From the IMG/VR virus record IMGVR_UViG_3300045988_104412: a stretch of 64,000 nucleotides of DNA; one strand, given 5' to 3'. The translations under genes were made by a program, and so were the position numbers. Within the stretch, counting starts at the first letter, position 1. Every line of letters starts with the position of its first letter. Under the pieces are notes generated by a model. It saw nothing but the letters and a program-made list of their open reading frames with translations, was not told the DNA's origin and did no database searches. The stretch comes from a virus. This document shows positions 2,606 through 53,665 of this stretch, piece after piece.

Positions 2606-3175
2606 TTAGTTCACTAACATAGGACCCGTGTCGCGGCCTGTAAACGATATATTGATATTGCGAGCATAGTCTCCGTTCTTTTCCGTCATTTCGTCAACGT
2701 GTAGCTTCACGCGGAACGTCTTTTTCCCATATTCGTCGCCCTTATCAAGAGTCCTTATCTCTACCCAGGCACCTTTTACGGGCTGATTGTTGTCCCATGT
2801 GCTTAGTTCGTTCTTCTTGTATTCGGGCTGCCATTGATCCTTCCATCCCCACACCGAACCGTCCGCTTGCTCCACCTCGTAACGACCGTCATACATATCG
2901 TCAGCAGGGGCATTGTAGACCGAAAAACAGACAACGTAGTAGTCGGTCTTGTAATTGCCCATCATCGGGTCGCTATAGAGGGCAAAGTACCCCTTGCCGT
3001 AGTTTTGGGAGTAAGACAACTGATGCACAGGCTTCTCTTTGAGAAGTTTTGAAAAAGCCGACTCCACCGGCACATACTCCGGCTCTGCATCGTCATTACT
3101 GCTACAACTGCCAATACTCACACATGCTGCTGTCATCATCGTCAACAGCAGCATCATTCTAAAGATTTTCTTCAT
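2606..3175 (-). CDS. lipoprotein (moron-like, opposite strand to neighbours)
   Basis: MKKIFRMMLLLTMMTAACVSIGSC lipobox-type signal; 189 aa. Confidence 0.75.
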   Translation of the reverse strand: MKKIFRMMLLLTMMTAACVSIGSCSSNDDAEPEYVPVESAFSKLLKEKPVHQLSYSQNYGKGYFALYSDPMMGNYKTDYYVVCFSVYNAPADDMYDGRYEVEQADGSVWGWKDQWQPEYKKNELSTWDNNQPVKGAWVEIRTLDKGDEYGKKTFRVKLHVDEMTEKNGDYARNINISFTGRDTGPMLVN

Positions 3176-3250
3176 ACATTAATATTTTTATACGTCAGTA
3201 CTTTCGTAGTTTTCTGATTTTGAAATAATAGATGTAGGGTCGGTCGTAGG

Positions 3251-3610
3251 CTATTCTTCGGGCAGCAGCACTACGCCGACACGGACTTTTGCGCCACAAT
3301 GAGGGCAGAAGGTGGAGGTATTGATAGTGAGTTGTGAGTGTTCTTGTGTATTATTTCCTTTCTCCTCTTTTTCTTCATTGAATGAAGGGTCGATATTCTC
3401 GGTATTGTCCGATTCATCTATTGGATAGAATAGGTCGGTGATGTCACAATCTAATTTCTCGCAAAGGTCTTCCAATCGCCTTATCGTAGGGTTTCCTTTG
3501 ATATAATTCTGAATGATGTTCTGTGTCTTTAGGTCGAATTTCTGACAGAAAGACGTAATGGTGTAACCGCGCTCCGTAATGGCGCGGCGAATGTCAATTT
3601 TTGTTCTCAT
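3251..3610 (-). CDS. XRE-family HTH regulator with C-terminal zinc-ribbon
   Basis: ITERGYTITSFCQKFDLKTQNIIQNYIKGNPTIRRLEDLCEKL HTH; CPHCGAK at C-terminus; start 3610 chosen because a minus-strand TAATTTTG box sits at 3635-3642. Confidence 0.75.
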   Translation of the reverse strand: MRTKIDIRRAITERGYTITSFCQKFDLKTQNIIQNYIKGNPTIRRLEDLCEKLDCDITDLFYPIDESDNTENIDPSFNEEKEEKGNNTQEHSQLTINTSTFCPHCGAKVRVGVVLLPEE

Positions 3611-3634
3611 ATATATGGTTGTATTGTTTGCCTG

Positions 3635-3642
3635 CAAAATTA
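3635..3642 (-). promoter_or_regulatory. Bacteroidota -7 promoter box TAATTTTG for the HTH gene
   Basis: Exact TAnnTTTG match 25 nt upstream of ATG 3610 on minus strand. Confidence 0.55.
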
Positions 3643-3829
3643 ATATATATATTTGTATTACGCAAGTTTTGCAAGAAATAATTATTGTATATATTTATTT
3701 TATTCGAGATTCATGGTTTTTATTAGTTTATATCGTTTTCTTGTACATTATTAGTGAAAAATACGAGAAGACAACTTATATTTCTTGTGTTTGAATTATT
3801 CATTCGCTCCTATAAATAGTTAATAATCA

Positions 3830-4115
3830 GCGTTTAATCCGCATATTACCATACGAAAGTCGCCCCAAAAGGGACACTTAAATAATTGATAATTAGAGCA
3901 ATCGCATCCCCGAACTCTGCCCTGAAACTTTAATCCAGAAGCGAGATTGCCCACCGCGCTGAGGAGCCTCGTGGCGTGCCTGCCTGGGATGGCGTTTGTA
4001 TATGCCACCGACCAGCAGCAGGGAGGCACCAGGCGCCGCCGCGCGCCCTCGATGGTCCACACCACCACCGACACCACCGACCAGTAGCAGGGAGGCCCCA
4101 GGCGCCTATATATAT
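3830..4115. other. GC-rich non-coding island (candidate structured RNA or protein-binding element)
   Basis: Visibly GC-rich block inside very AT-rich intergenic DNA; only implausible minus-strand ORFs; contains 33-nt direct repeats. Confidence 0.4.
4005..4106 (+). repeat. two 33-nt direct repeats separated by 36 nt
   Basis: CCACCGACCAG[C/T]AGCAGGGAGGC[A/C]CCAGGCGCC at 4005-4037 and 4074-4106. Confidence 0.9.
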
Positions 4116-4249
4116 ATAATAAGGAGAGCAATTGTATGTAATTGTAAACAAACGTAAAAAAAACTACTTGTATTTGTTTGCAAAGGTTAAAAGTAAATAT
4201 ATTTAATAATTAAACATCGGATAAATTTGGTTATATCAAATTTATATAA

Positions 4250-4257
4250 TACCTTTG
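4250..4257 (+). promoter_or_regulatory. -7 promoter box TACCTTTG
   Basis: Exact TAnnTTTG 40 nt upstream of ATG 4297; a second box TAAATTTG at 4222-4229. Confidence 0.55.
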
Positions 4258-4296
4258 CAAACGTAAACAATAAACAAATAAAATACTTTACAGATT

Positions 4297-4650
4297 ATGA
4301 ACAAAAAACAAACAGCGGTTTTAATCGCTCTCGCAACGTTAGCGATTAACAAAAAAGACGGTTTTACTGTAAACGCGGAAACTTTACAGCCTGTAACACG
4401 CGGTTACGCTGTAGCCATTGCAGACACTCAAGACTCGTTTGGTCTCGAAGGTCTTGCTAACGTTGTAAAATATGTTTCCGAACATCCGGAAATAAATGCT
4501 TTTGGCGGTTGGTACAATAGCAAAAATAATATGTATTATTTTGATGCTACCGTAATAGTTGAGGATTTACAAAAAGCCCTCGAACTTGGCCGCGCAAATA
4601 AACAACTTGCAATCTTCGATCTTGCAAACGGTTTAACTATCGACCTTTAG
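4297..4650 (+). CDS. hypothetical protein
   Basis: 117-aa ORF behind conserved leader ACTTTACAGATTATG; followed by hairpin 4657-4679. Confidence 0.6.
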   Translation: MNKKQTAVLIALATLAINKKDGFTVNAETLQPVTRGYAVAIADTQDSFGLEGLANVVKYVSEHPEINAFGGWYNSKNNMYYFDATVIVEDLQKALELGRANKQLAIFDLANGLTIDL

Positions 4651-4656
4651 AAAAAC

Positions 4657-4679
4657 AAGGACCGGCGGCGCCGGTCCTT
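4657..4679 (+). terminator. hairpin terminator candidate
   Basis: AAGGACCGG-cggcg-CCGGTCCTT, 9-bp stem. Confidence 0.55.
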
Positions 4680-4706
4680 ATATAGCAATAACAAAAACTT
4701 TATATT

Positions 4707-5057
4707 ATGATATATAACAAAGAAATCAACGGCGTTAAATTTACACTTGTTTGCGAGTCGTGGCAGACTCGAAATAGTTGGGGGCATAAAGTTTCGCTCT
4801 ATCGAAACGAATCTTTTTTTGTTGGTAGCGCAAAAATCCGCTATTATAATAGGACTTGGGAAAAATACCAGTATCAAAGTACTATTAAAAGCGTAATTTT
4901 CAACGCTATTCAAGGAATAAAAGCGGCGGCAAAGAAAGTTTTTTTAAGTGTGCATAACTATAAAGTTATGACAAAAAAGCGCGCCGTGGCCTTTCTTGAG
5001 TACCTGAAAAAAGATAATGAATATAATTTGTATAACGAACTTTTAAAAATGTTCTAA
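4707..5057 (+). CDS. hypothetical protein
   Basis: 116-aa ORF, followed by hairpin 5065-5088 plus T-run. Confidence 0.55.
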   Translation: MIYNKEINGVKFTLVCESWQTRNSWGHKVSLYRNESFFVGSAKIRYYNRTWEKYQYQSTIKSVIFNAIQGIKAAAKKVFLSVHNYKVMTKKRAVAFLEYLKKDNEYNLYNELLKMF

Positions 5058-5064
5058 CCGTTCA

Positions 5065-5088
5065 CGGGCTGCAATTACTTGCAGCCCG
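5065..5088 (+). terminator. intrinsic terminator
   Basis: CGGGCTGC-aattactt-GCAGCCCG followed by TTTTTATTTT. Confidence 0.7.
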
Positions 5089-5100
5089 TTTTTATTTTGT

Positions 5101-5330
5101 GGCTATCTGTGGCTACTCGTGGCTATCCGTGGCTACTCGTGGCTATCCGTGGCTACTCGTGGCTATCTGTGGCTACTCGTGGCTACTCGTGGCTATCTGT
5201 GGCTACTCGTGGCTATCTGTGGCTACTCGTGGCTATCCGTGGCTACTCGTGGCTATCTGTGGCTACTCGTGGCTACTCGTGGCTATCCGTGGCTATCTGT
5301 GGCTATCCGTGGCTATCTGTGGCTACTCGT
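5101..5330. repeat. 23 tandem 10-bp units GGCTAYYYGT (three variants)
   Basis: Counted directly: GGCTATCTGT x7, GGCTACTCGT x11, GGCTATCCGT x5, no spacer. Confidence 0.98.
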
Positions 5331-5483
5331 TATAAATCTTATAGAACATTACAGATAACAGGGAATTGCAAACAAATGTAAACAATACACATTACATATA
5401 TATATAATTATATACGAATGTTAAAATAAATATATATGATAATTTTTTTATTGAAAATATTTGGCCGTTTCAAATCTATATAG

Positions 5484-5491
5484 TAATTTTG
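5484..5491 (+). promoter_or_regulatory. -7 promoter box TAATTTTG
   Basis: Exact TAnnTTTG 38 nt upstream of ATG 5529; surrounding TTTGCAAACGTAAACAA is duplicated at 4254-4270. Confidence 0.55.
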
Positions 5492-5528
5492 CAAACGTAA
5501 ACAAGAAACAAATAAATACTTTATAATT

Positions 5529-5756
5529 ATGAGAACAATGTATCTAATTGAACATTATGCCATCAACCGAAAAAACGGTGTTTGGTCGCTAATAGGTTAT
5601 TCGCGTGTTGACTATCGCGTAAAAAACCTCGTTATGAAGTCTGTGAAAAAACAGGGCTACCAGTACAATAGAAGCGAGAAGGCTTATATCCTGGAAACAG
5701 ATCCTGTTGAGTTTTGCGCCGACAAGGCCATCACAGTGAAGTCTTATGCAATATAA
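5529..5756 (+). CDS. hypothetical protein
   Basis: 75-aa ORF behind promoter box and conserved leader. Confidence 0.5.
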   Translation: MRTMYLIEHYAINRKNGVWSLIGYSRVDYRVKNLVMKSVKKQGYQYNRSEKAYILETDPVEFCADKAITVKSYAI

Positions 5757-5784
5757 TTATAACAACTTTACTACTTTACAGATT

Positions 5785-6060
5785 ATGGCAAAAATCACTA
5801 AAAAACAGGAGTTTGACGAGCTTTTAAAGTTCGGCTGCGCTTTCCTTCAGACCAACAATTATGGCGGTTATTGCATCGTTATAGACGATGGCGGCGAGTC
5901 CGTATTGTGGCGCGACTGCACCAGTAGAAATGAGCATACGGCGCGACGTTGGCAGCGCATCAAATACACTTGTCCGCGTGATCCTGAAACCGAATCGCGT
6001 CCGTACCTTACTATATACGGCATCCGCTATTATCTGGACGACTTCATGCGCTGCGCCTAA
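5785..6060 (+). CDS. hypothetical protein
   Basis: ATG 5785 directly follows CTTTACAGATT leader; hairpin 6069-6086 downstream. Confidence 0.55.
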   Translation: MAKITKKQEFDELLKFGCAFLQTNNYGGYCIVIDDGGESVLWRDCTSRNEHTARRWQRIKYTCPRDPETESRPYLTIYGIRYYLDDFMRCA

Positions 6061-6068
6061 CCATACCA

Positions 6069-6086
6069 GGGAGGCTCCGGCCTCCC
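6069..6086 (+). terminator. hairpin terminator candidate
   Basis: GGGAGGC-tccg-GCCTCCC followed by TTATTATAGACA box. Confidence 0.55.
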
Positions 6087-6137
6087 TTATTATAGACAAC
6101 ATATAACATCACCAACTTTATAAATACTTTACAGATT

Positions 6138-6812
6138 ATGAGTACACCGAATTTTTCATTAATGAATGCTTCACGGTATTTCGTGTTAGGAATGCCTGTA
6201 TATTACACACAGGAAGAAATAGACGAGCGCGAACTCGACCAGGACCTTTTAGGCGAGTTTGACGAGATAGGCACAGAATTTAATTATGATGCCGTCAGAG
6301 GTAATGTAGCCTACGAACTGAAGGCGAAGGGATGGCACGATATAGCGGACTGTGACGGCGATCGCAATTATCCAACGTCTCTATTTTCAGAGAAAACGAT
6401 ATCTATTAAGTGCGGCGACAATTCGATCGACATCACCATTCAAGCCGGCTGCACGTCTGGTTATTACCAGGCAGCCAATTTTGATTGGTTTGTAAATATC
6501 AAGACCTACAGAAAGGCAGATTATTATTACGAAACGTGTGATTATGATTACAACGACCTGTCAGCCGACGACGTGATCCGCGACCACTGGTACGACAACA
6601 AAGGACTCAGCAAGATTCACGCTGCGCACATCATCCGCAAAATTGAGGCCGTTATAGACGACTTGAAAAACGAGGCTGAATGCGCATTCTCGAAGTATTG
6701 CGACGAAGAAATGTTTTGCGCCTGGCAGGTCTCCAATGGTGAAGCCGGCTACAGCACAGCGGGCAAGCGTCTCTGGAAAGAAGTGGAAGAACAGAATAAG
6801 AAAACCGCTTAA
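6138..6812 (+). CDS. hypothetical protein
   Basis: 224-aa ORF behind ACTTTACAGATTATG leader; no motif recognised. Confidence 0.6.
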   Translation: MSTPNFSLMNASRYFVLGMPVYYTQEEIDERELDQDLLGEFDEIGTEFNYDAVRGNVAYELKAKGWHDIADCDGDRNYPTSLFSEKTISIKCGDNSIDITIQAGCTSGYYQAANFDWFVNIKTYRKADYYYETCDYDYNDLSADDVIRDHWYDNKGLSKIHAAHIIRKIEAVIDDLKNEAECAFSKYCDEEMFCAWQVSNGEAGYSTAGKRLWKEVEEQNKKTA

Positions 6813-6825
6813 ACAATATATCATC

Positions 6826-7083
6826 ATGGCACAGAACATCACAATATCGCGCACAGCGAACGCTCGCGCCCTTCTGACGGCATTATTTGCCGTCGCCGTG
6901 TTACTCGTCACTCGCATGGCCAAGAACGCCTTAGAAGCCATTAAAACGGCCCACCAGTGGCTCCGGGCTCAGCACCGCTTTTATGGCCAGGATGGCGACC
7001 CTATCCAGTGCACTGGCTGGCAATTCATCGGCTACAACATCATGGCAGCAGTAGTGGCAATATTGCTCTGCATTAAGTATTAA
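6826..7083 (+). CDS. small membrane protein
   Basis: ATG 6826; two hydrophobic segments ALLTALFAVAVLLV and IMAAVVAILLCI. Confidence 0.5.
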   Translation: MAQNITISRTANARALLTALFAVAVLLVTRMAKNALEAIKTAHQWLRAQHRFYGQDGDPIQCTGWQFIGYNIMAAVVAILLCIKY

Positions 7084-7139
7084 TTAACGCTTTATTATAG
7101 GCATATAAAAACATCACCAACTTTTAAAATTTACAGATT

Positions 7140-7532
7140 ATGGCACAGATAGCATTATTCAACGTTACTAACGATACACAGTATTTACCGCAGCGTCGTG
7201 ACATGTTCAACGAGGCACGATGGAAGGAGGCAAAGCGCCTTATGGCTCAGGCCTTGAAACTGACAAGCAAGGAGGCGAGCCGCTATACTTCGCGCTTCCT
7301 CCAGGATAGAATGGTCGGTGGGGACTTTCCGGCACCAGCCGGAGGCTATCACAACGGCATCACGTGTATTGCCAACGGAGGCGAGCACAGCCAGCAGCGA
7401 GGCGAGTTCACAGTGTACGATATTATAGGCAGCTCGTATATTTACGAGGCTCCGACAGGCGATTTGTGTATTGCCAATATTCCAGAGGATGGCCAAACGG
7501 AATACTACCGTATAGCCGTATTGTCTTACTAA
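7140..7532 (+). CDS. hypothetical protein
   Basis: 130-aa ORF behind TTTACAGATTATG leader; hairpin 7544-7562 downstream. Confidence 0.55.
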   Translation: MAQIALFNVTNDTQYLPQRRDMFNEARWKEAKRLMAQALKLTSKEASRYTSRFLQDRMVGGDFPAPAGGYHNGITCIANGGEHSQQRGEFTVYDIIGSSYIYEAPTGDLCIANIPEDGQTEYYRIAVLSY

Positions 7533-7543
7533 TCATCATTCAC

Positions 7544-7562
7544 GGGCTGCGCCTGGCAGCCC
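7544..7562 (+). terminator. hairpin terminator candidate
   Basis: GGGCTGC-gcctg-GCAGCCC. Confidence 0.55.
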
Positions 7563-7593
7563 TATTATAGAACATCTAAAAAATTGAGAAATT

Positions 7594-8400
7594 ATGAATC
7601 AGATATTTGTTGAAGCAAAAAATCTTATTTGCAAAGATGGCTCGGTGTGGTTGTGGGAGTCTGAAAGCATGGAGACGGTGCGCTGCTTCGCATCCAACGA
7701 GGATGCACAGAAGTATATAGATTTGCATCATCAGTTTTGCCGTGAACGCGGCATGAAGGAAGAATCCTACAGCATCGGCACGGAGGCAGACTTTATGGCG
7801 GCTGCGAAAAAGTATGAAGCCGACAAGAAGGCCAACGAGGTGAAGGAGTATTGCAAGCACGTTGACGCATTGATAGAGCGCAGACAGCTCGAAATTAAGG
7901 CTCTGGACGGACTTGTTCAGGTGTGCCGAAAGTTTGATGGCAAGGTACTTAATAAACGCTTCCATGATGCAGTGAAGGAGGCGACGGGCTTTTATAGTTC
8001 GTTCGGTGAACGCCGCTTCGAGCTGAACTGCTACGACTATTACAACTTTATCGAGTATCGCCCTAATGTCTCAATGTCCGCCGACTGGAGCCACGGCATC
8101 AACCGCTACACCGGCAAGAAGAAGGAGATGAATCCGAACGACTGGCAGTGGGACACTGGCGACCGTCTGGATGCCGAAAAAGCGGTTGCCGTTATAGATT
8201 TTTACAAAAACGGCCTACTTGCCAAAATCGAGGAACTGAAGGCTTCAAAGAAGAAGTATGCAGCCTATCTGCGCCTGGCACGAAAAGCGGAGGCGATAAT
8301 GAAAGAAATGGAAGGCTACGACTACGAGATCCGCGAGTTCGCAAAGGAGAAAGCATTGAGCCAGTATAGCCATCATTCCTACTTCTGGAAGGGTTATTAA
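7594..8400 (+). CDS. hypothetical protein
   Basis: 268-aa ORF; hairpin 8413-8440 downstream. Confidence 0.6.
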   Translation: MNQIFVEAKNLICKDGSVWLWESESMETVRCFASNEDAQKYIDLHHQFCRERGMKEESYSIGTEADFMAAAKKYEADKKANEVKEYCKHVDALIERRQLEIKALDGLVQVCRKFDGKVLNKRFHDAVKEATGFYSSFGERRFELNCYDYYNFIEYRPNVSMSADWSHGINRYTGKKKEMNPNDWQWDTGDRLDAEKAVAVIDFYKNGLLAKIEELKASKKKYAAYLRLARKAEAIMKEMEGYDYEIREFAKEKALSQYSHHSYFWKGY

Positions 8401-8412
8401 TTCATTATTCAC

Positions 8413-8440
8413 GGGCTGCACCTGGCAGCAGGTGCAGCCC
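8413..8440 (+). terminator. hairpin terminator candidate
   Basis: GGGCTGCACC-tggcagca-GGTGCAGCCC, 10-bp stem. Confidence 0.6.
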
Positions 8441-8473
8441 TTATTATAGAACACATTAAAAATTGAGAAAATC

Positions 8474-9157
8474 ATGGATAAAAAGAAGTATATCGACGTG
8501 TTGACTGAACAGGCAAGTAAGCACGGCAGACCGCAGGAAATGGCCCTGAATGACTTCTGCGACTACCTTATAGAGTTCTTTAGCATTGACGCTTTTAAGG
8601 CTGGCACCGCTGAATATAGCCAGCACATTTTGAGCTGCACGAAGAAGAATCCTGACTTTGCAGGACTCACTTTTCAGTGGCTCGACGATGTGGCAACAGC
8701 AATGGAGCGTGGCGAGTGGCTGGACGTGTTCGGTATTTTGTATGAAGAAATGTATCTGAGCCGTGGCAAGGCATCGAAGACGGGGCAGTTCTTCACGCCT
8801 CAGAGTGTGTCGGACCTCATGGCACGGATTAGTGCCCTGGGAGCCGAAGACCATGGCAAGGTGAACGACTGCGCAGCAGGTAGCGGACGTTTGCTCCTGG
8901 CTCACTACATGGAGAAGAGCAAGCTGGACCATGCAGCCGGAAGGCGGTTCGAGTATGTGGCACAAGATAGCGATCCTATTGCTTGTAAGATGTGCGCCCT
9001 AAACTTCATGGTACATAGCATGTATGGCCGTGTGGAGTGTCGCGACACATTGCGCATGAGTGAGCCGACGGTGGTGTATTATATCAACGAGGTGAAATAT
9101 CCTTTTAACACGCCTTATTATAGCGTGAGAACGGTATTAGCGAAAAATCAGAAATAA
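8474..9157 (+). CDS. N6-adenine DNA methylase-like protein, short and with degenerate catalytic motif
   Basis: GQFFTPQSV and NDCAAGSGRLL (AdoMet motif I) present; KYPF stands where NPPF is expected and the ORF ends 13 aa later. Confidence 0.6.
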   Translation: MDKKKYIDVLTEQASKHGRPQEMALNDFCDYLIEFFSIDAFKAGTAEYSQHILSCTKKNPDFAGLTFQWLDDVATAMERGEWLDVFGILYEEMYLSRGKASKTGQFFTPQSVSDLMARISALGAEDHGKVNDCAAGSGRLLLAHYMEKSKLDHAAGRRFEYVAQDSDPIACKMCALNFMVHSMYGRVECRDTLRMSEPTVVYYINEVKYPFNTPYYSVRTVLAKNQK

Positions 9158-10779: not shown

Positions 10780-10890
10780 CGTTAAGTAATTATTAATTTT
10801 TAATTAGTAATTATTAATTGGCATTAATCATAATCAATAAAGTATTTTGTTTCCTGCTGCCGCGGTTCGTGAGGATAGCAGCAGCCACAA

Positions 10891-10940
10891 CGCCCACCAC
10901 GGCAAGGCGTGGCACCAGGTTCGAGCTCCTGGATGGGCGA
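10891..10940 (+). other. second 50-nt tRNA top-half-like element
   Basis: CGCCCAC ... CCAGG-TTCGAGCT-CCTGG-ATGGGCG-A; same architecture and similar 17-nt insert (CACGGCAAGGCGTGGCA vs CCCGGCACGGCCTTTTGC). Confidence 0.3.
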
Positions 10941-17169: not shown

Positions 17170-17346
17170 CAGTCTGTTTCATTGTTTTCGTTCGACGGAA
17201 ACTAAAATCCGTTGAATCGGTTGAATCCGATGTCAAAGAAAGGTCGGGCTCATCCGTTTCTTCTGATGACTGGCGTGTGGACATAATTGTAAATGACGAA
17301 TGGGACTGATAACGAAGAGAGTGGTTTTACACAATTACACAAAAAA

Positions 17347-17476
17347 CATAAAGCCACAAACACATAAAACCACAAATCCACATTTGTGGTTTCTCATAAA
17401 CACACAAACACATCCACACATAAATGCACAAACGCATAAATTCATAAACGCATACATAAATCAATCAACACATAAA
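17347..17476 (+). repeat. eight CATAAA motifs in a nearly G-free A/C-rich tract (candidate centromere/parS-like site)
   Basis: CATAAA starts at 17347, 17363, 17395, 17419, 17435, 17443, 17455, 17471; inverted repeat CCACAAAT-ccac-ATTTGTGG at 17370-17389; immediately upstream of parA. Confidence 0.5.
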
Positions 17477-17576
17477 GCAATAAACAAATAAATCAATATA
17501 TATATAAATACATACATCAAGAAAGAAATCAACAAACAAACAAATCAATAAACAAACAAATAAATGTACATGGATG

Positions 17577-17676: not shown

Positions 17677-18543
17677 ATGGAAAGACTTAGAGAAGTGCTT
17701 GCCTTTGTAAATCACAAAGGCGGCGTAGGAAAAACAACAACGGTGCAGAGTTTAGCGACTGGCTTGCGCCGTTTTGGTAAAGGAAAATTCGGAGTGGGTG
17801 CCGATGGACGCAAACGCTTGCCGCGTGTGCTCATTATCGACCTTGACCCGCAGGCGTGTGCCTCGTTCCTCTTCGGATGGAGCGAGATTCAGAACGTAGG
17901 CAAGCCTACCGTTTACGACGCATTGGTACAGCAAAGCAATTTGCCCATTTATCAGGTACGTGAGGGTATTTACCTCGCGCCAGCTGCTGCGCAGCTCATA
18001 TCCATTGAACCGTTCCTTAATCAGCGTGCTTTGCCTCGCAAAGCTCTTTGTAAATTGCTCGCCAAGCCACTGAACGAGCTGGCAGGCACCGAGCTGGCAG
18101 ACGAAGGCGTGAACACCGTCACGGATGCTTTCGACTACGTGCTTATAGATTGTCCTCCGGCTATGTCGCTGCTTACATATAATGCTCTCACAGCTGCTAC
18201 GAGTGTAGTGCTGCCCGTTCAACTCGAAGTGTTGGCAACAAAAGGTATTGCCGAAATCATCAACGCCATCAAGGAAACACGTGAGGATCTTAATCCCGAC
18301 CTTGACATTCGTGGCTTGCTGATGGTAATGAGCAACGACCAGACCAACGCCACAAAGGAGTTCAAGGAATACCTTGGCGAAAAGTATCAGGACTATATGT
18401 TTGACGCTTATACGCGCCGCGACACGAAGATGGTCGAAGCGCAGGCTATGCGAGAAGACATCTTTGCTTATGCACCGTATTGCAGGGTAGGGCAGGACTA
18501 TGAGCGTTTTACCAAGGAGATAATCAACAGTTTCACTTTTTAA
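17677..18543 (+). CDS. parA: ParA/Soj-type partition ATPase
   Basis: Deviant Walker A NHKGGVGKTTT, IIDLDPQ, LIDCPP motifs. Confidence 0.9.
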   Translation: MERLREVLAFVNHKGGVGKTTTVQSLATGLRRFGKGKFGVGADGRKRLPRVLIIDLDPQACASFLFGWSEIQNVGKPTVYDALVQQSNLPIYQVREGIYLAPAAAQLISIEPFLNQRALPRKALCKLLAKPLNELAGTELADEGVNTVTDAFDYVLIDCPPAMSLLTYNALTAATSVVLPVQLEVLATKGIAEIINAIKETREDLNPDLDIRGLLMVMSNDQTNATKEFKEYLGEKYQDYMFDAYTRRDTKMVEAQAMREDIFAYAPYCRVGQDYERFTKEIINSFTF

Positions 18544-18554
18544 TATTATAGGGT

Positions 18555-19010
18555 ATGGCAAGAGAAATGACGAAGAAGACGAGACGCTTCAGTCTTGAGG
18601 AGTCTGACGCTATCGAGGAGAACGAGCGCATATTGGAATCCGGCAGTAAGCAGCGTAAGGAGAACAGGGAAAACAAGGGGAGTGGAGAAGCGGCAGTAAG
18701 TGCTGCCACTGCTTCGTCCGCAGAAGTTCCGGCGACTGAAAAGCCGACTGTTTCTACAACAACGTCTGAGACTGAGACATCGACAACTACAACCCCTGTA
18801 GCAGATCAGCCGGCAACCATATCATTCAGCAACGATATTGCTGTGAACATGCGTAAGCCGAAGGGCAAGAAGACCGAGAATGGCATCACCATATACGTGC
18901 CGATGGAGTATTACGAGCGTATCGCCTTGATGAAAATGCGCACTGGCGTGCCTATCAAGGATTTGGCGCTACAGGCTGTGATTGAGTTCCTGGACAGAAA
19001 CAAAATGTAA
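18555..19010 (+). CDS. ribbon-helix-helix protein, ParG-like centromere-binding candidate
   Basis: Follows parA by 11 nt; disordered S/T-rich N-terminal part; C-terminus ITIYVPMEYYERIALMKMRTGVPIKDLALQAVIEFL fits strand-helix-helix. Confidence 0.55.
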   Translation: MAREMTKKTRRFSLEESDAIEENERILESGSKQRKENRENKGSGEAAVSAATASSAEVPATEKPTVSTTTSETETSTTTTPVADQPATISFSNDIAVNMRKPKGKKTENGITIYVPMEYYERIALMKMRTGVPIKDLALQAVIEFLDRNKM

Positions 19011-19582: not shown

Positions 19583-19618
19583 TGTGTAAGGTAAAATCCT
19601 ACTAAAGTTTTTTACCTT

Positions 19619-19689
19619 GGTGAAAAGGTCATAATGTTTTTTACCTTAAAAGGGATTAGGAGGTGAAAAGGTCATAATGTTTTTTACCT
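19619..19689 (+). repeat. two direct 28-bp iterons GGTGAAAAGGTCATAATGTTTTTTACCT
   Basis: Identical copies at 19619-19646 and 19662-19689. Confidence 0.9.
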
Positions 19690-19790
19690 ATTATTTAAAA
19701 TAAACATAATAAAATACTTTGTTTGTTTTATTTAGGGAAGACAAAAAATGCACTTATACTCCTATATATTAAGCAATTAGAAAGATTGCG

Positions 19791-19853
19791 AGGTAAAAAA
19801 CATTATGACCAAATACCCCTAAAAAGGGTGGTTGAGGTAAAAAACATTATGAC
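19791..19853 (-). repeat. two inverted-orientation copies of the iteron core (AGGTAAAAAACATTATGAC)
   Basis: 19791-19810 and 19835-19853; flank an AT-rich stretch just upstream of the rep-like gene. Confidence 0.9.
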
Positions 19854-19885
19854 TTCTTTACCAAAATCACGTAAAAGCATCTATT

Positions 19886-21097
19886 ATGGAAAGAGAAAAA
19901 CATCTACCGCAACAATATATCAGTACCCCTTTTGCTTACACAAAGTTCTCCAAGAACCTGTCATTGCTTCAGCAAACGGTATTGACTAAGGTCAGCGAAC
20001 ACCTACAGGGTTATGTGCGTCATTTCTTTGGAAGTAACTTACGAAATGACCCGAAGGTGCCGCGTCCTCTTTTTTCTGAAGCAGAAAAGAACAACGGTAT
20101 GCCGGAGTTTGTTATGTCGTATGCTGAGTTAGGTGTGGATATAGCCAACTATAATGTAGCGCGTGCAGCCGTCCAGGAAGTTCTAAACCTAACCGTTGAT
20201 GCTCCCAGTGAGGACAGCGACGGCAAGGCTTCCGTCAAGGCTTTTAATATCTTCACGCACGCCAATATTTCTTTTGAAGGTGGTACAGGCGTGTCTTTCA
20301 GGCTGAATCCCGAGGTCGTGGACTATGTGTTTGACATGAGTCAGGGGTATGTGCGCCATCCTGCTGATATAGCACGAATAGGACAGATTGAACGTATGCC
20401 CATGATGTATTATTATCTGCATAAGAAATCAGAGCACTGGAAGCATCGGAGTGTACGCTTGACGGTATTAGAAATAAAGACATATTTGGGTATGCTGGGC
20501 AATATTACCGAAGGCACAGACGAAAGGTCTGGACGACCACGAAAAGACGGAAAAGAGAAGAAAGAGGCTTATCCTAAGTTCTCTCAGTTTAAGAAGAATG
20601 TCATTGAGACAAGCATCAACGACATTAATCGCTTGCGAAAAGACGGATTGCTTGATGTTTGTGTGTCGTATGAACCTATCTATAACGGCAAGCGCAAAGT
20701 TGGTAATCCTGCATATATAGAGTTTACAATCTATGACACCATCGGGCAAATGCAACAAGCAGTACAAAAAAGACAACAGCTCAATCTCTTTGCTGATGTC
20801 GAGGAGTTGAAGCCGAAGCCAGGTGAAAAGGAGTGGCAGAAACTTTTGACCATGCTTGACGGCGAAGCAGGCGAGTGGCTGGGTAGTGAGATGTCGGACC
20901 TGTTGAAAAAAATGACGCTTGATAAATATGACGGCAAGACTGTCCGGATTATTGCGACTCAGAAACAGGTGGCAGACATGGAGAATTTGCTGGGTAATAA
21001 TGTACTAAAAAATAAATTTAGCCAATTACTTGGTCATTGTTTTAAAGGCGACAAACGTAAAAAGGTTTGTTTGGATTATAATAAAATTAATAAATAG
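19886..21097 (+). CDS. plasmid-type replication initiator (Rep_3/RepB-like)
   Basis: Iterons directly upstream; N-terminal FSKNLSLLQQTVLTKVSEHL, central LTVLEIKTYLGM, YPKFSQFKKNVIETSINDINR resemble Rep_3 winged-helix consensus as recalled; not searched. Confidence 0.6.
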   Translation: MEREKHLPQQYISTPFAYTKFSKNLSLLQQTVLTKVSEHLQGYVRHFFGSNLRNDPKVPRPLFSEAEKNNGMPEFVMSYAELGVDIANYNVARAAVQEVLNLTVDAPSEDSDGKASVKAFNIFTHANISFEGGTGVSFRLNPEVVDYVFDMSQGYVRHPADIARIGQIERMPMMYYYLHKKSEHWKHRSVRLTVLEIKTYLGMLGNITEGTDERSGRPRKDGKEKKEAYPKFSQFKKNVIETSINDINRLRKDGLLDVCVSYEPIYNGKRKVGNPAYIEFTIYDTIGQMQQAVQKRQQLNLFADVEELKPKPGEKEWQKLLTMLDGEAGEWLGSEMSDLLKKMTLDKYDGKTVRIIATQKQVADMENLLGNNVLKNKFSQLLGHCFKGDKRKKVCLDYNKINK

Positions 21098-36934: not shown

Positions 36935-37719
36935 TCAGAAAAGAGTAGGCTGCGCCAGCTCCAGTTTGATGCGCTTGCAAGCCTTGTCGTAATACTCCTT
37001 GTTGAGCTCGAAGCCGATGAAGTTGCGCTTCTCGCGGATGGCTGCAATGGCGGTGGTGCCGCTGCCCATACAGTTGTCTAAGATAGTGTCGCCTTCGTTG
37101 GAGTAGGTGCGGATGAGATACTGAATAAGAGCTACTGGCTTTTGGGTGGGATGGATCTTCTCCTTATCCCGAATAAATTCGAGTAAATTTATAGGGAAAC
37201 GAGAACCATCACTTACTGTCACCGCTCCTCCATTTTGCGCTTGACATTTTCCTCGTACCATTGCAGCGTCTTTTCGTTGAATGCCATTTTTGCAGGCATA
37301 AGGCTTGCACCCCTTAATCATTTGAGGATGATACTCCATATACATTTTTTCTTGCTTTCAGTTGTTGCAGCCATTCCGAAAACACATATATCCTCTGTAA
37401 TCTTCAATGGTTGATGATGGGAATTTAAGTAATTAGTACCGCTCTCTTTTTTCCATATCCAATTATACTTATACATATCTATGTTCGACATGATAAGCGC
37501 AGACGTGAAAGGTTGCTGACTAAACAAGACTATAGCACCAGTATTCTTTATGATTCTCTTGTATTGCTCCCACAACTTATCAAATGGAAGCACGCTATCC
37601 CAAGCGCAAGCAGTAGTACCATACGGCAAATCGCACACGATGCAATCCACGCTCCCGTCCGGGATCCTTTTCATTCCTTCCAGACAGTCTTCATTATATA
37701 TCTTATTCAGTTCTATCAT
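36935..37719 (-). pseudogene. beta-class N6/N4 DNA methyltransferase interrupted by a frameshift at an A6 run
   Basis: ORF 37719-37318 has motif IV (CDLPYG); ORF 37345-36935 has HPTQKP and CMGSGTT (motif I); frames join if A6 (37345-37350) were A7. Confidence 0.75.
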
Positions 37720-37741
37720 GCTTTGTTACTTTGCAAATCTA

Positions 37742-38336
37742 TCAGTTAAACCATTTCACAGTTGTCTCGCCCTTATATCCCTTCTCCCACACGAACCATG
37801 CGTAGGCGGCAGCGCTGCCCTTTATTGCATCGAAATCGCCGTTGGGTGCGCATTTCAGTCTTGATGAGCTTACCCAAACACGAATGGGGGGGGGTAGAAC
37901 GGAACAGCGCGCGGCGTGCCTTGCCTTCGAGGAAAGTCAGCTTTAGGAACATCGCCACTTTCTTTCTTTCGGGAATGATGCTCAGAGCCTTCTCAACGAA
38001 CTGCTGCGCATATTTGTAGGGTGGATTGGTCACGATGTTTCCGTCCCACGCCAAGTTGTCTATTGCAAGGAAGTCAGCCACCTCGCCGTAACCTCTATCC
38101 ACAAGGTCGCGGCTCACCACCTCGTACCCTGCCGCCTTCAGCACCTCGCTTATGTGTCCTTCGCCACACGCAGGTTCCAATATTCTACCGTCGAATTGTT
38201 CCAACCGGCAAAGCCACTCCGTAGCTTTTGGCTCCGTAGCGTAATAGTCCTCACGCTGTCGTTCTCCGTCAGCATGATTACTCGCTCCTAATGTCTTGAA
38301 CACGGCAGCCGAGCCGCCCACCCAGTCCTTAGCCAT
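37742..38336 (-). pseudogene. gamma-class N6-adenine DNA methyltransferase interrupted at a C9 run (G9 on + strand)
   Basis: EPACGEGH (motif I) and TNPPY (motif IV) upstream; after 37886-37894 the +1 frame reads IRVWVSSSRLKCAPNGDFDAIKGSAAAYAWFVWEKGYKGETTVKWFN to TGA 37744-37742. Confidence 0.75.
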
Positions 38337-38378
38337 TGTGAACCTCCTTTCCGCATTTAATTGAATAGTTCATGTCTT

Positions 38379-38708
38379 TTACATTTTAAATTGTCTTTTC
38401 AAGAAAGGATTGCTCTTTATGAGTTCTATCATTTCTACCTCTGAGTGTAAACCCTCCCAAAATACTTCAGTATGTGAATATCTTCTTTCGTCGTCAATGG
38501 AGAACGGCACGGCATAGTTGGTATATATAACGCCGTGATGTTTTATCAAGTGGCGACCTGGATTCTCGTAGACATTATCGATCCACGTCTCGTTGTCACA
38601 TTCAGTCCATATTTTGTATTCTTCGTGGGTAAGGCCTTTGTCGATACCCATAGGGTAGTGACCAGCCTTGCCGTTTCCTTCTGTCCCGAAATAGATAATC
38701 TTTGCCAT
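38379..38708 (-). CDS. hypothetical protein
   Basis: 109-aa ORF inside the modification operon. Confidence 0.55.
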   Translation of the reverse strand: MAKIIYFGTEGNGKAGHYPMGIDKGLTHEEYKIWTECDNETWIDNVYENPGRHLIKHHGVIYTNYAVPFSIDDERRYSHTEVFWEGLHSEVEMIELIKSNPFLKRQFKM

Positions 38709-38730
38709 ATCGTGATTGTTTTATGTTGTT

Positions 38731-40000
38731 TTAAAATTCGCCAAAATCCAGTTTCATCTGTTGAAATTTCTCGGCATACCATTGTCTGGATGATTTGCCA
38801 GAAATCCACCAGTCGTAGATGTTCTCCGCTATTTCGTTTTCTTGCTCCTCTGTCAAGCGGTCAGAAGAGGAGCTGTCCGAAAACCCAATGCGGCGAGTCC
38901 ACACACCGGTGTTCCTTCGGACAGGTCTTCCAGTTACAGACTGTCCGCATCCACTGTTTACAAATGCGGAACGTCGGCATTGCCGCTTCTCGTATTTTAC
39001 CCCCCAGTCGGATTGTTTGTAGAATCGAGCTGGATCCAATGTTCCGGGTCGGGATGCTTGATGTAGCCGCCTGCGTCCTGAGCAATTCTCTGACGTTTCT
39101 GAGAGGCATCCAGTCCTTGTGGATGTTCCACCAGATGTATTCTTTTTTGAATACCCCCCCGTTTCGGATGGCCTTAATCGCCTTAATCCAGTTTCTCTTT
39201 ACATGTGGATAGCGTTCGTTTTCTATCATCTTTTGCTTATGCGAACTCATTGGACAGCCGATGCAACCTATGCGGTGCCATCCTTCGTCGTAGAGCGAGC
39301 AATGCGGAACTTTCACAACATCATTAAGAAATTCCCATACGTCTTGCTCGGTCCAATAGATAATGGGCGAAATCAGTAGACTCTCTTTGCCGTGGATGCA
39401 GCCTAACGTCTGCTCCTCGTCGGCATTGGTGATGTTCACTCCGTCCTCTCTTGACTTTCGCCTTATGCGTTTAGCCTTCTGCTCTTGTCTATACTCTTCA
39501 AGACCATCGAGGTCGCCGCTAAACTTTCGATTGTTTATCTCCACCTCGTTGCGCTTTGCCCGGCGCGAACTCTCTGCCTTACGTATGCCGATAAGCGTAA
39601 CCTTGCCAGCACCTGCCGTTTCCTTGTATTCAGCGCAGCACCAACGCACACGCATAGTTGGCAAAATCTGTCTTTCTACGGCACTTTGAAAGATGGATTT
39701 ACCAGGCTTGTTTAGTTCCACCTCGGGATAGTTTTTCTTCACGAAGCGTATCACTTCGGGCGGGTCAACGCTCGTAAGATTCATGTGACCTTGAAACCTT
39801 ACCCCCGCTAACTATGCGATATGGTAGAGAGCCTGAGAATCTTTGCCGCCGCTAAACGCCAAAAAATAACCTTGCTCGGCATCATAGTTGAGAGCAATCT
39901 TCTCCGCCTTTTGCAACAATTCCACCGAGTGAAGCATTTTCTTTCGCAATCGTGCCGAAGCACGGTTTAAGGCTTCGGCAAGCGTAATTTTGATATTCAT
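38731..40000 (-). pseudogene. PP-loop ATPase / PAPS-reductase-family gene with in-frame TAG and at least one frame change
   Basis: SGGKDS in ORF 40000-39812; TAG 39814-39812; same frame resumes 27 nt later (39784); C-terminal coding signal ends in another frame at 38731. Confidence 0.7.
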
Positions 40001-40120
40001 TTATTTATAAATTTGTATTATTATATTTTTACTATCAAAGTCGGCATTTAGACAAATAGGAGGCGGCGTGCCATGCCAAAGAACTCACGAAAAGTCATTG
40101 TTACTCGAACGTAATCCAAT

Positions 40121-40182
40121 CGGACGGCGAACGCAATCCGAGCGGACGGCGAACGCAATCTAATTGGGCGGCGAACGCAATC
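40121..40182. repeat. three tandem ~22-bp repeats (GGCGAACGCAATC core)
   Basis: CGGACGGCGAACGCAATCC 40121-40139; CGGACGGCGAACGCAATC 40143-40160; GGGCGGCGAACGCAATCC 40166-40182. Confidence 0.9.
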
Positions 40183-40198
40183 CGGAGAAACGAACCTT

Positions 40199-41209
40199 TT
40201 AGAAGGAAGCGTTTATTCCGTAATTCCTCAAATACTCCTCGCACCTGAAGTCCTTTCTTGGTGAGAAGTCCTTGAAATTGGTAGTACAGAAAATCATTCG
40301 CTTATTGCACCAGCGTGCCAGATCCTTTTGCCATTCCGGAACAACGTGATTAGGATTCACGGGGTCACGGTATGGCTGAGCGTAAGCATAAACCGCCCTA
40401 CCTTCGTGAGTCTTGCGAAACCGTTGTAGACGTTTCCACCAATAGTGTAGCCGATGATAGCATTCTTCAAAGTTGTTCTTGCCGCCTATCATGGTATAGA
40501 GAAAGTATTCGCCCCGGAATCCTGCCGCATTGATAAGTTGCATGGCTCGTTCACAATATGCTATCTGTGCCGTGGTGTCGCAACCAAAGCGGATGCGAGA
40601 GTCTATCCATTTCACTTTCCCTAACAGCTCGGCATATTCGGGAGTGACAAGCCGTGCATCCATCGCCTGATTGAAGTCGATATGCAGACCGAGGTCGATT
40701 ATCTTCTTGAGCTGCTCCTTTGCATAGTCGCCCGCCGCAAGAATGTTGTTGTCCATCAGCACAACATGCGTGCGCCCCTCTATGGCAATTTCTTCTATAT
40801 CCATGTAAGGACGTATGCGCCCCTCCTTTTTCGGAACAACACACCAGAAGCATTTGTTAGGGCACCCCTCGGTAAGTTTGCCTACGGCTTGATTTTTCGG
40901 TAGCCAAGGGTACATCGCGTAGAGAGGTTGGAGCTTGTCTATCTCGTCGGGCAGACGCTTATAGATGTCGTAGCCCGTGCCACCCTTCTCCAGTCGGTCG
41001 TAGGAGAACTGCCGAAAGTCGATGTCGGGCGAAAAGTTGAAAACCTTGCTGGCATACAGTATGTCGTAATGATGCCTGTCGAAAAGGTCGGTAGGCTGTG
41101 CCCATTCCACTTCATCGCCCTGCGTCGTGTGCCAACGGGCAATCTTGCCGAGATCCACGTTAGGGTATATCGTAGCTCCCCATTTCTTTTTGCCGTGTCG
41201 CCCATCCAC
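40199..41209 (-). CDS. radical SAM enzyme, unknown substrate
   Basis: CPNKCFWC (CxxxCxxC) cluster motif; 336 aa. Confidence 0.8.
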   Translation of the reverse strand: MDGRHGKKKWGATIYPNVDLGKIARWHTTQGDEVEWAQPTDLFDRHHYDILYASKVFNFSPDIDFRQFSYDRLEKGGTGYDIYKRLPDEIDKLQPLYAMYPWLPKNQAVGKLTEGCPNKCFWCVVPKKEGRIRPYMDIEEIAIEGRTHVVLMDNNILAAGDYAKEQLKKIIDLGLHIDFNQAMDARLVTPEYAELLGKVKWIDSRIRFGCDTTAQIAYCERAMQLINAAGFRGEYFLYTMIGGKNNFEECYHRLHYWWKRLQRFRKTHEGRAVYAYAQPYRDPVNPNHVVPEWQKDLARWCNKRMIFCTTNFKDFSPRKDFRCEEYLRNYGINASF

Positions 41210-50152: not shown

Positions 50153-50311
50153 CCTTCCGTAAGCTGCAAAGCATTTGTCTTGCGCTACTTTTCGCAATTA
50201 GTGAAGCATTTATCAGGTCGTCGCGCCGTTAGGCGAGGCGACCTTTTCGTTTGCGCTTCACTCGCTTTTCTTCCGTTTTCTCACTTATTCAAGAATAAAA
50301 CTTCTGCCCCC

Positions 50312-52128: not shown

Positions 52129-53097
52129 ATGATTAAAGAATTTAAAACTCGTACAGGAGCGATTTTTAGTGATACTAAGAATTGTCTTGAGTATTTGTAT
52201 GTTGGCGACTATGGCAAGGAAGCCAACATCAAGGCAGACTTTCTTGGCTTGACCAAGGAGATTAATGGTGTAACCCACAAGAAGGTTGACCTTGAGGATA
52301 AGATGGTCGTTACTATTTCTACTCAAAAAGGATGCCCAATGAAATGTAAGTTCTGCGATTGTCCTAAAGTCGGTTTCCACGGCAATGCCAATGTTAGTGA
52401 CCTACGAGCAGAAGTAATGTCGGCTATCGTTCGTTCAGGGTGTCAGCATACAAAGCGCTTCAACCTTCACCTGGCTCGTATGGGTGAACCGTCTTTCAAT
52501 TGGGATAACATCAAGATCTATTTGCTTTGTTATCTTAAGGATGATGTTAGTGTGTTCATGGATGCAGATGTTATTCATCCTGTATTTACGACCATGCTTC
52601 CGCGTACTTTGGGACGTAATACGCTTAAACGTATTCTCGGCGAGTTTTGTCAAGTTAAGAATTGCGAGTTTAGAGGTGAAGCCGGATTGCAGTTGTCTAT
52701 AAACTCTACAGATGAAGAGCAACGTAATGATTTGTTCCGCGGGCTATCTTTGTCTTTGCAGGAAATTTCAGAGATTTGTCAGGACTTGCCCATGCCGGTT
52801 GGCAGAAAATATACGCTAAACTTTCCCGTTACCAGGAATACGATATTGGACCCTGTTGTCTTGGATAAACTTTTTGATAAGGAAAAATTCATTGTGAAGA
52901 TAACCCCTATTCACGAGACGAAAGAGGCTATAAGCAATGGCATCCAGACAGAGGAGGGATATTACACATACGACGTCTATAAACAGTTTGAGAAACCGCT
53001 TGTCAAAGCAGGTTGGGATGTGATCGTTTTTGTTCCTTCAGTGGAAGAAGACGAGGACAGAATAACTTGTGGCAACGCCATTTTGAGTGAACATTAA
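52129..53097 (+). CDS. RlmN/Cfr-like radical SAM methyl-transfer enzyme, short form
   Basis: [30 protein letters not shown] vs RlmN [54 protein letters not shown]; C-terminal TCGNAIL vs AACGQLA. Confidence 0.7.
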   Translation: [322 protein letters not shown]

Positions 53098-53107
53098 GAG
53101 TAATAAT

Positions 53108-53605
53108 ATGAAACTGATAACGATTACTGGCCCGAGTGGTGCAGGAAAAGATACAGTTGCTCGGATGCTGTCCGATTTGGGCGATTATAAAGTGATATGT
53201 TCTTATACCACACGTCCGAAGCGTGAAGGCGAGATTGACGGCGTGGAGCATCACTTTGTAGAGAAGTGCGATGTGCCGCATGACAATATGCTGGCTTATA
53301 CGCAATATGGCGGTTATGAATATTGGACCACCGTAGAGCAGGTGGGCGATAAGGTTATTTATGTTATCGACGAAGATGGACTGAAGTCGCTTTGCGAGAA
53401 GTTTCCTGATATAGAACTGTTCAAAATTTGCGTGTCGGCAAAGGAACGCACCCGGCTTCGCCGAGGTGTTACCCCTGAACGCATGGCACGCGACAAGCGG
53501 CGCAAACGTCTACCTTTGTCATTCTACGATGCTGTGATCTTTAACAACGATTCGCCTGGTGATCTGCGTGACGAAGTGTTGCGCGTAAGATACATGATTC
53601 AATAA
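53108..53605 (+). CDS. guanylate-kinase-like nucleoside monophosphate kinase
   Basis: ITGPSGAGKDT P-loop; SYTTRPKREGEIDGVEHHFV; ATG 53108 preferred over GTG 53087. Confidence 0.8.
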   Translation: MKLITITGPSGAGKDTVARMLSDLGDYKVICSYTTRPKREGEIDGVEHHFVEKCDVPHDNMLAYTQYGGYEYWTTVEQVGDKVIYVIDEDGLKSLCEKFPDIELFKICVSAKERTRLRRGVTPERMARDKRRKRLPLSFYDAVIFNNDSPGDLRDEVLRVRYMIQ

Positions 53606-53665
53606 AAACGATTGTGGCAATGAGAATGCACTATCTATTAAATAACAAATTAAGATTCGTAAGCA

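Follow-up and report, generated by a model that had tools for sequence, protein, structure and literature searches.

A hypervariable tandem-repeat array in a fixed slot of the early control region of a human-gut phage-plasmid

In this study, we analyzed a tandem-repeat array, here called R2, at positions 5101–5330 of a 64,000-nucleotide stretch of viral DNA (IMG/VR record IMGVR_UViG_3300045988_104412; the whole stretch is referred to as the window). The window encodes a ParA protein (17677–18543) followed by a 151-amino acid (aa) protein, designated 18555 (18555–19010), whose C-terminus weakly resembles ribbon-helix-helix (RHH) proteins (E = 0.18), and a Rep3-like initiator (19886–21097). It also encodes an NAD-dependent ligase, a sliding clamp, a large terminase, a 2066-aa tape-measure protein, a holin, DNA methylases, and enzymes of nucleotide metabolism. 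Because Par and Rep genes occur together with terminase, tape-measure, and holin genes, the window is a phage-plasmid, and it is part of a Bacteroidota (Prevotella/Segatella-like) element of approximately 90 kb. Its promoters are of the TAnnTTTG type, and the nearest ParA proteins in PLSDB are found in plasmids of Segatella copri and Bacteroides (34–40 % identity).

The R2 array, its flanks, and the sister slot R1

By splitting positions 5101–5330 of the plus strand into ten-mers, we obtained exactly 23 head-to-tail GGCTAYYYGT units without spacers. Three variants were present, GGCTATCTGT (A) in seven copies, GGCTACTCGT (B) in 11, and GGCTATCCGT (C) in five, and they were arranged in the order ABCBCBABBABABCBABBCACAB. 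The units, variants, counts, order, and coordinates given in an earlier sequence-only reading of this DNA were all correct. Outside R2, GGCTAYYYGT has one exact match in the 64 kb (50145–50154, minus strand); when up to one mismatch was allowed, the window contained 52 matches compared with 19.4 ± 5.1 in shuffled sequences, and the excess was due entirely to the array. Tandem Repeats Finder reported a period of 10 (22.8 copies) and gave a higher score to a period of 20, which fits the mostly alternating (A or C)-B order; R2 is thus built largely from 20-bp dimers as its working unit. On the plus strand, the array is rich in G and T and poor in A (A 0.10, C 0.26, G 0.30, and T 0.33). Three plus-frame open reading frames (ORFs) at 5079–5381, 5099–5335, and 5119–5358 run through the array and, as the same reading had proposed, are open only by virtue of the repeat, because the unit has a single A that never falls within a stop triplet. 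Since these ORFs end no more than 51 bp past R2 and 10 is not a multiple of 3, the array is non-coding.

On its left side, R2 adjoins the intrinsic terminator of gene 4707–5057 (5064–5099, plus strand), which is composed of a hairpin at 5064–5089 with an 11-pair stem containing seven G-C pairs and a subsequent T-run. The array begins 2 nt past this T-run, and the same junction was found in the relatives L004–L017. On the right side, an AT-rich stretch leads to gene 5529–5756 (plus strand; 75 aa, no known family), the first gene of the downstream early operon. This stretch contains an early promoter/5′ untranslated region (UTR) module of the Bacteroidota type (5450–5516, plus strand), in which a TAnnTTTG-type −7 element is followed by TTTGCAAACGTAAACAA at 5488–5504. 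R2 thus lies between a terminator and the promoter region of gene 5529, where it had been placed from the letters of the sequence. Flank alignment showed that, in relatives, the interval between the array and the promoter holds four conserved boxes, A1 (CC)TGGTGCCCCACTCC, B1 TTATAnnATATCACAGATATTAGAG, A2 GTGCCCACTCCTGGCGGCTCG, and B2 TTATAGATCTTATAGAGCATCACAGATATTAGGG. Boxes A and B are conserved throughout the family, and the B boxes, which hold a 5-bp inverted repeat, look like operators. The window lacks the A1-B1-A2 stretch, and its last R2 unit abuts a conserved, operator-like remnant of box B2 (TTATAAATCTTATAGAACATTACAGATAACAGGG; 5331–5364, plus strand) at the place where relatives show GGCGGCTCG.

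These boxes point to a source of the repeat unit. Box A reads GTGCCYACTC, and the R2 unit read in the same register, GTGGCTACTC, is one base apart from it. In three relatives (L123, L168, and L183), an array of GGCTAYYYGT units (a GGCTA array) ends with ...GGCTATCTGTGCCTACTC and runs directly into box A1 (GTGCCTACTC), and the long units (57–60 bp) of other relatives begin with box A as one arm of an inverted repeat. Among 216 ten-mers from eight genomes, positions 1–5 and 9 were invariant and positions 6–8 were almost exclusively C or T, with the variants TCT, CTC, TCC, and CTT at these three positions accounting for nearly all of the ten-mers. From this kinship, we infer that the R2 unit derives, by amplification, from the G/T-rich box A in the neighboring operator region.

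The promoter of gene 4297 is immediately preceded by a sister repeat slot, R1 (3995–4106, minus strand), which in the window has only two 69-bp-spaced copies containing CCTGGTGCC and is T-poor on its plus strand. The promoter/5′ UTR module of gene 4297 (4216–4282, plus strand) is a paralogue of the module downstream of R2 (81 % identity, with two exact copies in the window), and R1 and R2 each precede one of these paralogous promoter/leader modules. The two slots bracket a two-gene cassette (4297–5057, plus strand) that has its own promoter and terminator and consists of genes 4297–4650 (117 aa) and 4707–5057 (116 aa). No Pfam or PHROG function was found for genes 4297, 4707, 5529, 5746, and 6138. 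The structure of the 4297 protein was predicted with confidence (pLDDT, the predicted local distance difference test score, of 94.9), and the model had no fold neighbor in the PDB (best E = 0.58). Distant homologues of this protein (42–48 % identity) occur in prophage-like regions of several Bacteroidota genomes among the GTDB species representatives, where the arrays are absent.

Array variation among relatives

Relatives of the window were recovered from metagenomes of the human gut, among them Hadza and Nepali samples. The family comprises 188 ParA relatives in IMG/VR, on contigs of approximately 85–105 kb, and the 4297 protein forms 901 clusters. A megablast search with positions 3000–9000 gave no match among INPHARED phages and PLSDB plasmids, and no near relatives were found in INPHARED, PLSDB, or the GTDB species representatives. 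In a literature search, we found no description of this phage-plasmid family or its arrays.

We compiled a comparative array table covering 32 loci. In all 14 IMG/VR relatives that have the upstream gene 4707–5057, a tandem array starts at the same terminator T-run, and the units differ. The R2 slot is occupied by five GGCTA units in L004, by approximately 50 copies of the CTTGTACGTG/CTTGGATGCT types or 3 to >35 copies of the CTGTATGGTG/CTGTATCTCG types in others, and by one to six units of 57–60 bp in still others, each of these long units having an imperfect inverted repeat CCTGGTGCC N6 GGCATCAGG. The periods in this slot are 9–11, 20, 29–31, or 57–60 bp. The R1 slot is similarly diverse, with units of 9, 12, 15, 22, 23, 31, 48, 62, or 69 bp in up to 59 copies; the 59-copy array belongs to contig 110351 and consists of GCACCCACAA/GCAGCCACGA, the reverse complement of which, TCGTGGCTGC, is close to the R2 unit of the window. 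In L117, an R1-slot repeat array occupies positions 2725–3313. The same unit type is present in both slots in L183, in inverted orientation, and in L186, in direct orientation, and occurs at R1 in L189, also in direct orientation.

Unit sequence, period (9–69 bp), copy number (0–60), and sometimes orientation of R1 and R2 vary even between genomes that are 98–100 % identical elsewhere. The GGCTA unit alone was found in 5, 17+, 23, 30, 45+, and 60 copies in different genomes. Among eight places with an identical 4297 protein, R2 ranges from approximately 17 to >45 units and R1 from 1.5 to 8.3 copies, and L129 and L130, whose flanking proteins are 97–100 % identical, have R1 periods of 12 and 15 bp, respectively. 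In L116, L120, L126, and L128, the array is absent or almost absent, and some genomes have 0–3 units. Contig 110351, which is 98–100 % identical to the window in ParA, 18555, 19025, Rep, and the helix-turn-helix (HTH) protein 22774, lacks gene 4707 together with its terminator, the R2 array, the operator boxes, and the promoter, so that gene 5529 directly follows the 4297 terminator. The sequence-only reading had considered frequent unit shuffling as one cause of the irregular variant order and had suggested counting copies in relatives. The counts proved highly variable; shuffling is supported by the occurrence of one unit type in 5 to approximately 60 copies across eight related genomes and by the different arrays of genomes with identical neighboring proteins.

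The arrays show a strong asymmetry between strands. T makes up 0–6 % of the C/A-rich strand of R1, and on the plus strand of the 10-bp R2 arrays, A accounts for 7–12 % and G + T for 62–74 %. The G/T-rich strands of the two slots face outward from the 4297–4707 cassette in most genomes; the exceptions are R1, which is flipped in L121/L122 and L186/L189, and the long-unit R2 of L132, which is inverted.

The arrays also leave their mark on assemblies. Many IMG/VR contigs end in R1 or R2, contig 104445 both begins and ends in R2, and scaffold N-gaps fall inside arrays. Very many short-read contigs of approximately 1 kb hold just 4297/4707, which indicates that both flanks are unassemblable repeats. 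The possibility that the arrays form a physical genome end was rejected, since many contigs carry them internally, assemblies break at both R1 and R2, and the N-gaps lie within them.

Taking these results together, the view that R2 is a fast-evolving non-coding minisatellite filling a fixed slot in the early control region is well supported, and the array gains, loses, and rearranges units in steps of 10 and 20 bp, with slipped-strand replication or unequal recombination as the presumed mechanism. The closest known kind is the variable number tandem repeat (VNTR) or contingency locus, such as the mycobacterial interspersed repetitive unit (MIRU)-VNTRs and the TAAA repeats upstream of nadA in Neisseria. 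Like these loci, R2 is a head-to-tail array without spacers that lies upstream of a promoter, differs in copy number between near-identical strains, and has the higher-order patterns of unit variants that are typical of unequal exchange; being head-to-tail, non-coding, and copy-polymorphic among close relatives, R2 fits a non-coding VNTR. Unlike these loci, however, R1 and R2 reside on a phage-plasmid as paired slots that bracket a cassette, and their unit sequence and period are replaced between lineages while the slot stays.

Candidate functions of the arrays

R2 had been proposed, from its sequence, to be a protein-coated segrosome-like site or an accessory of a replication origin. A centromere of the RHH/ParR kind would be in keeping with head-to-tail units of about one helical turn that are largely arranged as 20-bp dimers, as in pSK41 or in parC of plasmid R1, and the ParA gene of the window is followed by one for a possible RHH partner. 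Furthermore, in N15-type phage-plasmids, centromere sites are distant from the sop genes. However, both parA and rep carry repeats of their own. Directly upstream of rep, two direct and two inverted copies of GGTCATAATGTTTTTTACCT at 19618–19855 are probably the iterons of the plasmid origin, and a 240-bp block of A/C-rich, CATAAA-type repeats directly upstream of parA (17330–17570) probably serves ParA and 18555 as their partition site, this being the usual place of a type Ib centromere. Neither of them resembles the 10-bp unit. Although R2 consists of short direct repeats in non-coding DNA, as a centromere would, it is not adjacent to the operon of parA and its partner but lies 12.3 kb from parA (17677). 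No ParM, TubZ, or ParB-type gene was found among the scanned ORFs, which comprised most of those of at least 100 aa, except several at 32–34 kb and 60–64 kb.

Co-variation between arrays and proteins was examined for the proteins encoded at 2.6–44 kb that had enough homologues in genomes of known array type, with those at 50–62 kb lying outside the comparison. Between genomes with CTGTAT- and CTTGTA-type arrays, the 18555 protein shows 100 % identity, and it is 85 % identical to that of the window in a GGCTA genome and in non-GGCTA genomes alike. GGCTA and CTGTAT genomes share ParA at 99.7 % identity, and HTH 22774 (100 %) and the terminase (99.8 %) are likewise shared by genomes of different array types, as is HTH 3251 (98–99 % between the GGCTA genome L123 and the CTGTAT genomes L121/L122). 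Rep is 95 % identical to that of the window in contig 110987, which has a GGCTA array, and 94 % in contig 111880, which has a CTTGGA-type array. Almost every compared protein is 96–100 % identical in at least one pair of genomes that differ in array type. The only proteins without such a pair were those of the array-linked, fast-evolving genes 4297 and 4707, and these were not clustered by array type: the window and L123, both with GGCTA arrays, are 81 % identical, no closer than to genomes of other types. Gene 4707 was also considered as a candidate binder of the array and was rejected, because contig 100224, which is as close to the window as 110351, has lost most of this gene and retains an array of 30 units.

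The separate iterons and parA block, the lack of co-variation, and the loss of the R2 module from 110351 with its nearly identical par and rep genes contradict the centromere and iteron readings as far as the Par and Rep proteins of the window are concerned, and we regard a centromere-like site or accessory iteron array as very unlikely. Neither the segrosome-like site nor the origin accessory that had been proposed was borne out. On these comparisons, we conclude with modest confidence that R2 is neither a partition site nor a set of Rep iterons and that it would be dispensable for maintenance. A likeness of the R2 minus strand to the DnaA box (ATAGCCACA compared with TTATCCACA, 7/9) was within chance for the registers and variants tried and was dropped.

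The resemblance of R2 to known protein-binding arrays is one of form. The RHH centromeres, i.e., parC of pSK41 and of plasmid R1 and the omega heptads of pSM19035, share with R2 short direct repeats with a period near one helical turn, some of them paired into 20-bp dimers, and a position next to a promoter, and differ from it in their 4–10 copies (up to 60 in R2), whereas R2 is remote from the par genes, does not co-vary with a partner, and seems to be dispensable. The iterons of Rep3- and P1-type replicons (oriR/incA) are also multiple direct repeats able to titrate a protein, and incA is likewise a dispensable sink, but the Rep repeats of the window are unrelated to R2 in sequence, length, and spacing. 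MraZ operators are GTGG-type direct repeats at 10 bp that are wrapped by a ring-shaped AbrB-fold protein. The R2 units of the window similarly put GTGG every 10 bp in one orientation, and R1 of contig 110351 has GTGGG/GTGGC every 10 bp. In contrast, the mraZ promoter naturally carries an operator of three to four repeats, GTGG is missing from the CTTGTA and long-unit arrays of the family, and no MraZ/AbrB-like gene was found in the window. The sopC site of the F plasmid consists of 12 tandem 43-bp units with an inverted repeat, and the 57–60-bp units of relatives, which vary in copy number, are alike; this likeness is limited to the relatives and does not extend to the 10-bp units of the window, and an HTH-type ParB/SopB was not found. 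In location, co-variation, and conservation in the family, R2 departs from centromeres, iteron arrays, sopC, and MraZ operators despite the shared form.

We tentatively favor, at somewhat below an even chance, a regulatory reading of the array. Slippage would amplify box A into the R2 array, the array would present many box copies in the same orientation to whatever host or phage-plasmid factor reads box A, and it would then act, just upstream of the early promoter, as a sink or roadblock that is tunable by copy number and modulates early gene control. This reading is based on the fixed slot with its variable content, the rapid turnover, the loss in 110351, the kinship to box A, and the constrained positions of the unit. 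Binding by a protein other than Par and Rep is a possible part of it, and the inverted repeat in each 57–60-bp unit, which has the usual look of a dimer-binding site, may be a sign of such putative binding, as may the sharing of one unit type by R1 and R2 in L183 and L186. Several observations weigh against the reading. Within the compared 2.6–44 kb, no protein tracks the array type, and no binder emerged. No short word is common to all arrays; the best-shared 5-mer, TGGTG, occurs in 15 of 19 and is not present in R2 of the window. The similarity to box A is weak in the CTTGTA- and CTGTAT-type arrays of relatives, R1 and R2 of the window carry different units, and the rest of the window has no excess of box A (10 matches compared with 10.2 expected). 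The absence of arrays from some genomes fits a lack of function equally well, and the invariance of positions 1–5 and 9 of the unit could reflect recent common descent of the four variants rather than selection.

The main rival, which we consider possible and somewhat less probable, is that the array is a functionless minisatellite: the slots, with direct G/T-rich repeats beside a hairpin, would be slippage-prone, and the arrays would expand and contract neutrally. Presence or absence and huge copy-number differences between near-identical genomes, the change of period between genomes with 97–100 % identical flanking proteins, and the failure to find either a co-varying protein or a motif common to all arrays would all be expected on this account. 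It does not readily explain, however, why both slots persist across lineages whose flanking proteins are only 66–75 % identical, given that neutral repeats are normally lost from compact phage genomes, or why the strand asymmetry of R1 and the 10-bp R2 arrays is strong and consistent, unit positions are invariant across eight genomes, and the long units contain a dyad-symmetric box. If the arrays instead signal by composition and strand polarity, as paired cis-elements that form directional barriers bracketing the cassette, slot and asymmetry would be retained while units, periods, and copy numbers turn over. We think this unlikely. Such arrays could serve as Chi-like sites for the host helicase-nuclease AddAB and so protect or recombine the DNA lying between them, or their C-rich transcripts could be Rho-loading sites that keep transcription out of the cassette. 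The E. coli Chi sequence is GCTGGTGG, and R1 is similarly dense in GGTG/GTGG/CTGGTG words; R1 read in the plus sense also has a Rho-loading look (C 41–52 %, G 15–25 %, and T about 0). The polarity seen in most genomes, with a C/A-rich R1 and a G/T-rich R2 on the plus strand, and a mosaic junction in L123 and L117, in which identity to the window falls left of the array, are in line with a barrier as well. On the other hand, the flips of R1 and the inverted R2 of L132 show that the orientation is not fixed, the minus-sense strand of R2 has only weakly more C than G, and the absence of GGTG from R2 of the window and of GTGG from CTTGTA types, with no word common to all arrays, is hard to square with one enzyme; a Chi-type site would call for one host word in all arrays and a fixed polarity, and neither was observed. 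For Bacteroides AddAB, no Chi sequence is known (PMC2887965) against which the arrays could be matched. Least probable, in our estimation, is a structural role, either as the curved or helically phased DNA that the sequence-only reading had envisaged or as a long G·U-rich RNA hairpin made from the plus strand. In the window, the units recur every 10 bp exactly, but the array contains no A-tracts and the period is not conserved among relatives, which makes a function in curvature unlikely. The plus-strand RNA folds at −76.8 kcal/mol (z = −9.1 compared with shuffles) and the minus strand is unstructured. However, arrays of position-permuted units folded equally well in 11–39 % of trials; the hairpin was therefore dismissed as an artefact of tandem repetition and G/U-rich composition. 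In addition, the strong terminator upstream and the promoter downstream suggest that the array is probably not transcribed, and an Rfam search returned zero matches.

Other features of the window and meaning of the locus pair

A strongly conserved non-coding block lies to the left of R1 (3830–3990) and contains an invariant 25-mer, GATTGCTCTAATTATCAATTATTTA, on the minus strand. Every relative retains this block, including those in which the neighboring repressor-like gene belongs to another allele (24–31 % identity). It had no Rfam match, and with RNAalifold, folding energies were weak for both strands and compensatory changes were nearly absent. The first 11 bases of the 25-mer equal the start of the operator consensus of phage P1 C1, ATTGCTCTAATAAATTT; the 25-mer is single-copy in the window, and the likeness may be a coincidence. 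A single-copy G/T-rich island at 10853–10935 (minus strand), upstream of the promoter of gene 11060, contains CCTGGTGCC and GTGGCTGCTGCTATCC and may be a non-amplified relative of the seeds of R1 and R2. Beside it lies a leader-like sequence with only a 5-codon ORF.

Tandem GGCTAYYYGT copies were also seen in 13 unrelated metagenome contigs (within L169–L188; GC content 32–70 %), which have three to ten copies, often in gaps between the end of one gene and the start of another; two of them, L170 and L181, have many dispersed GTGGCTAT boxes besides. A rough estimate, taken over all 10-bp arrays, gives approximately 26 such hits expected by chance in a collection of this size, and we draw no conclusion from them.

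Two further repeats were noted in the window. A 22-bp tandem repeat, CGAACGCAATCCAATCGGACGG, is present in 3.5 copies at 40106–40183, in an intergenic gap of a minus-strand gene block, and a related 22-bp repeat occurs in a different neighborhood in L004 (11114–11192) and L006 (7544–7617), indicating rearrangement. At 2–155, a 78-bp unit occurs twice (93 % match) inside the ORF 53–571, in a region of tail-fibre-like genes, and is probably a coding repeat. As for the gene content, the regions 36935–41209 and 52129–54562 encode two DNA methylase fragments, a PAPS-reductase-like protein, two radical-SAM proteins, guanylate kinase, and ThyX, and an N6-methylase is encoded at 8474–9157; the cluster of modification and nucleotide genes may indicate that the phage DNA is modified. 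A tRNA-Met gene (57034–57108) lies between structural and nucleotide-metabolism genes, and a full-length LysR-type regulator with an HTH_1 and a substrate-binding domain (61238–62167) is unusual cargo for a phage-plasmid.

R1 and R2 represent a previously undescribed pair of hypervariable loci in an abundant and widespread family of human-gut phage-plasmids. They routinely break short-read assemblies and strand the cassette on orphan contigs of approximately 1 kb, which matters for assembly and binning, and they provide a ready strain-level VNTR marker with which these elements can be tracked between people. We know of almost no cis-regulatory biology of Bacteroidota mobile elements; if the arrays indeed tune early control or act as polar barriers, they would offer an accessible case of regulation based on repeat number in such an element.

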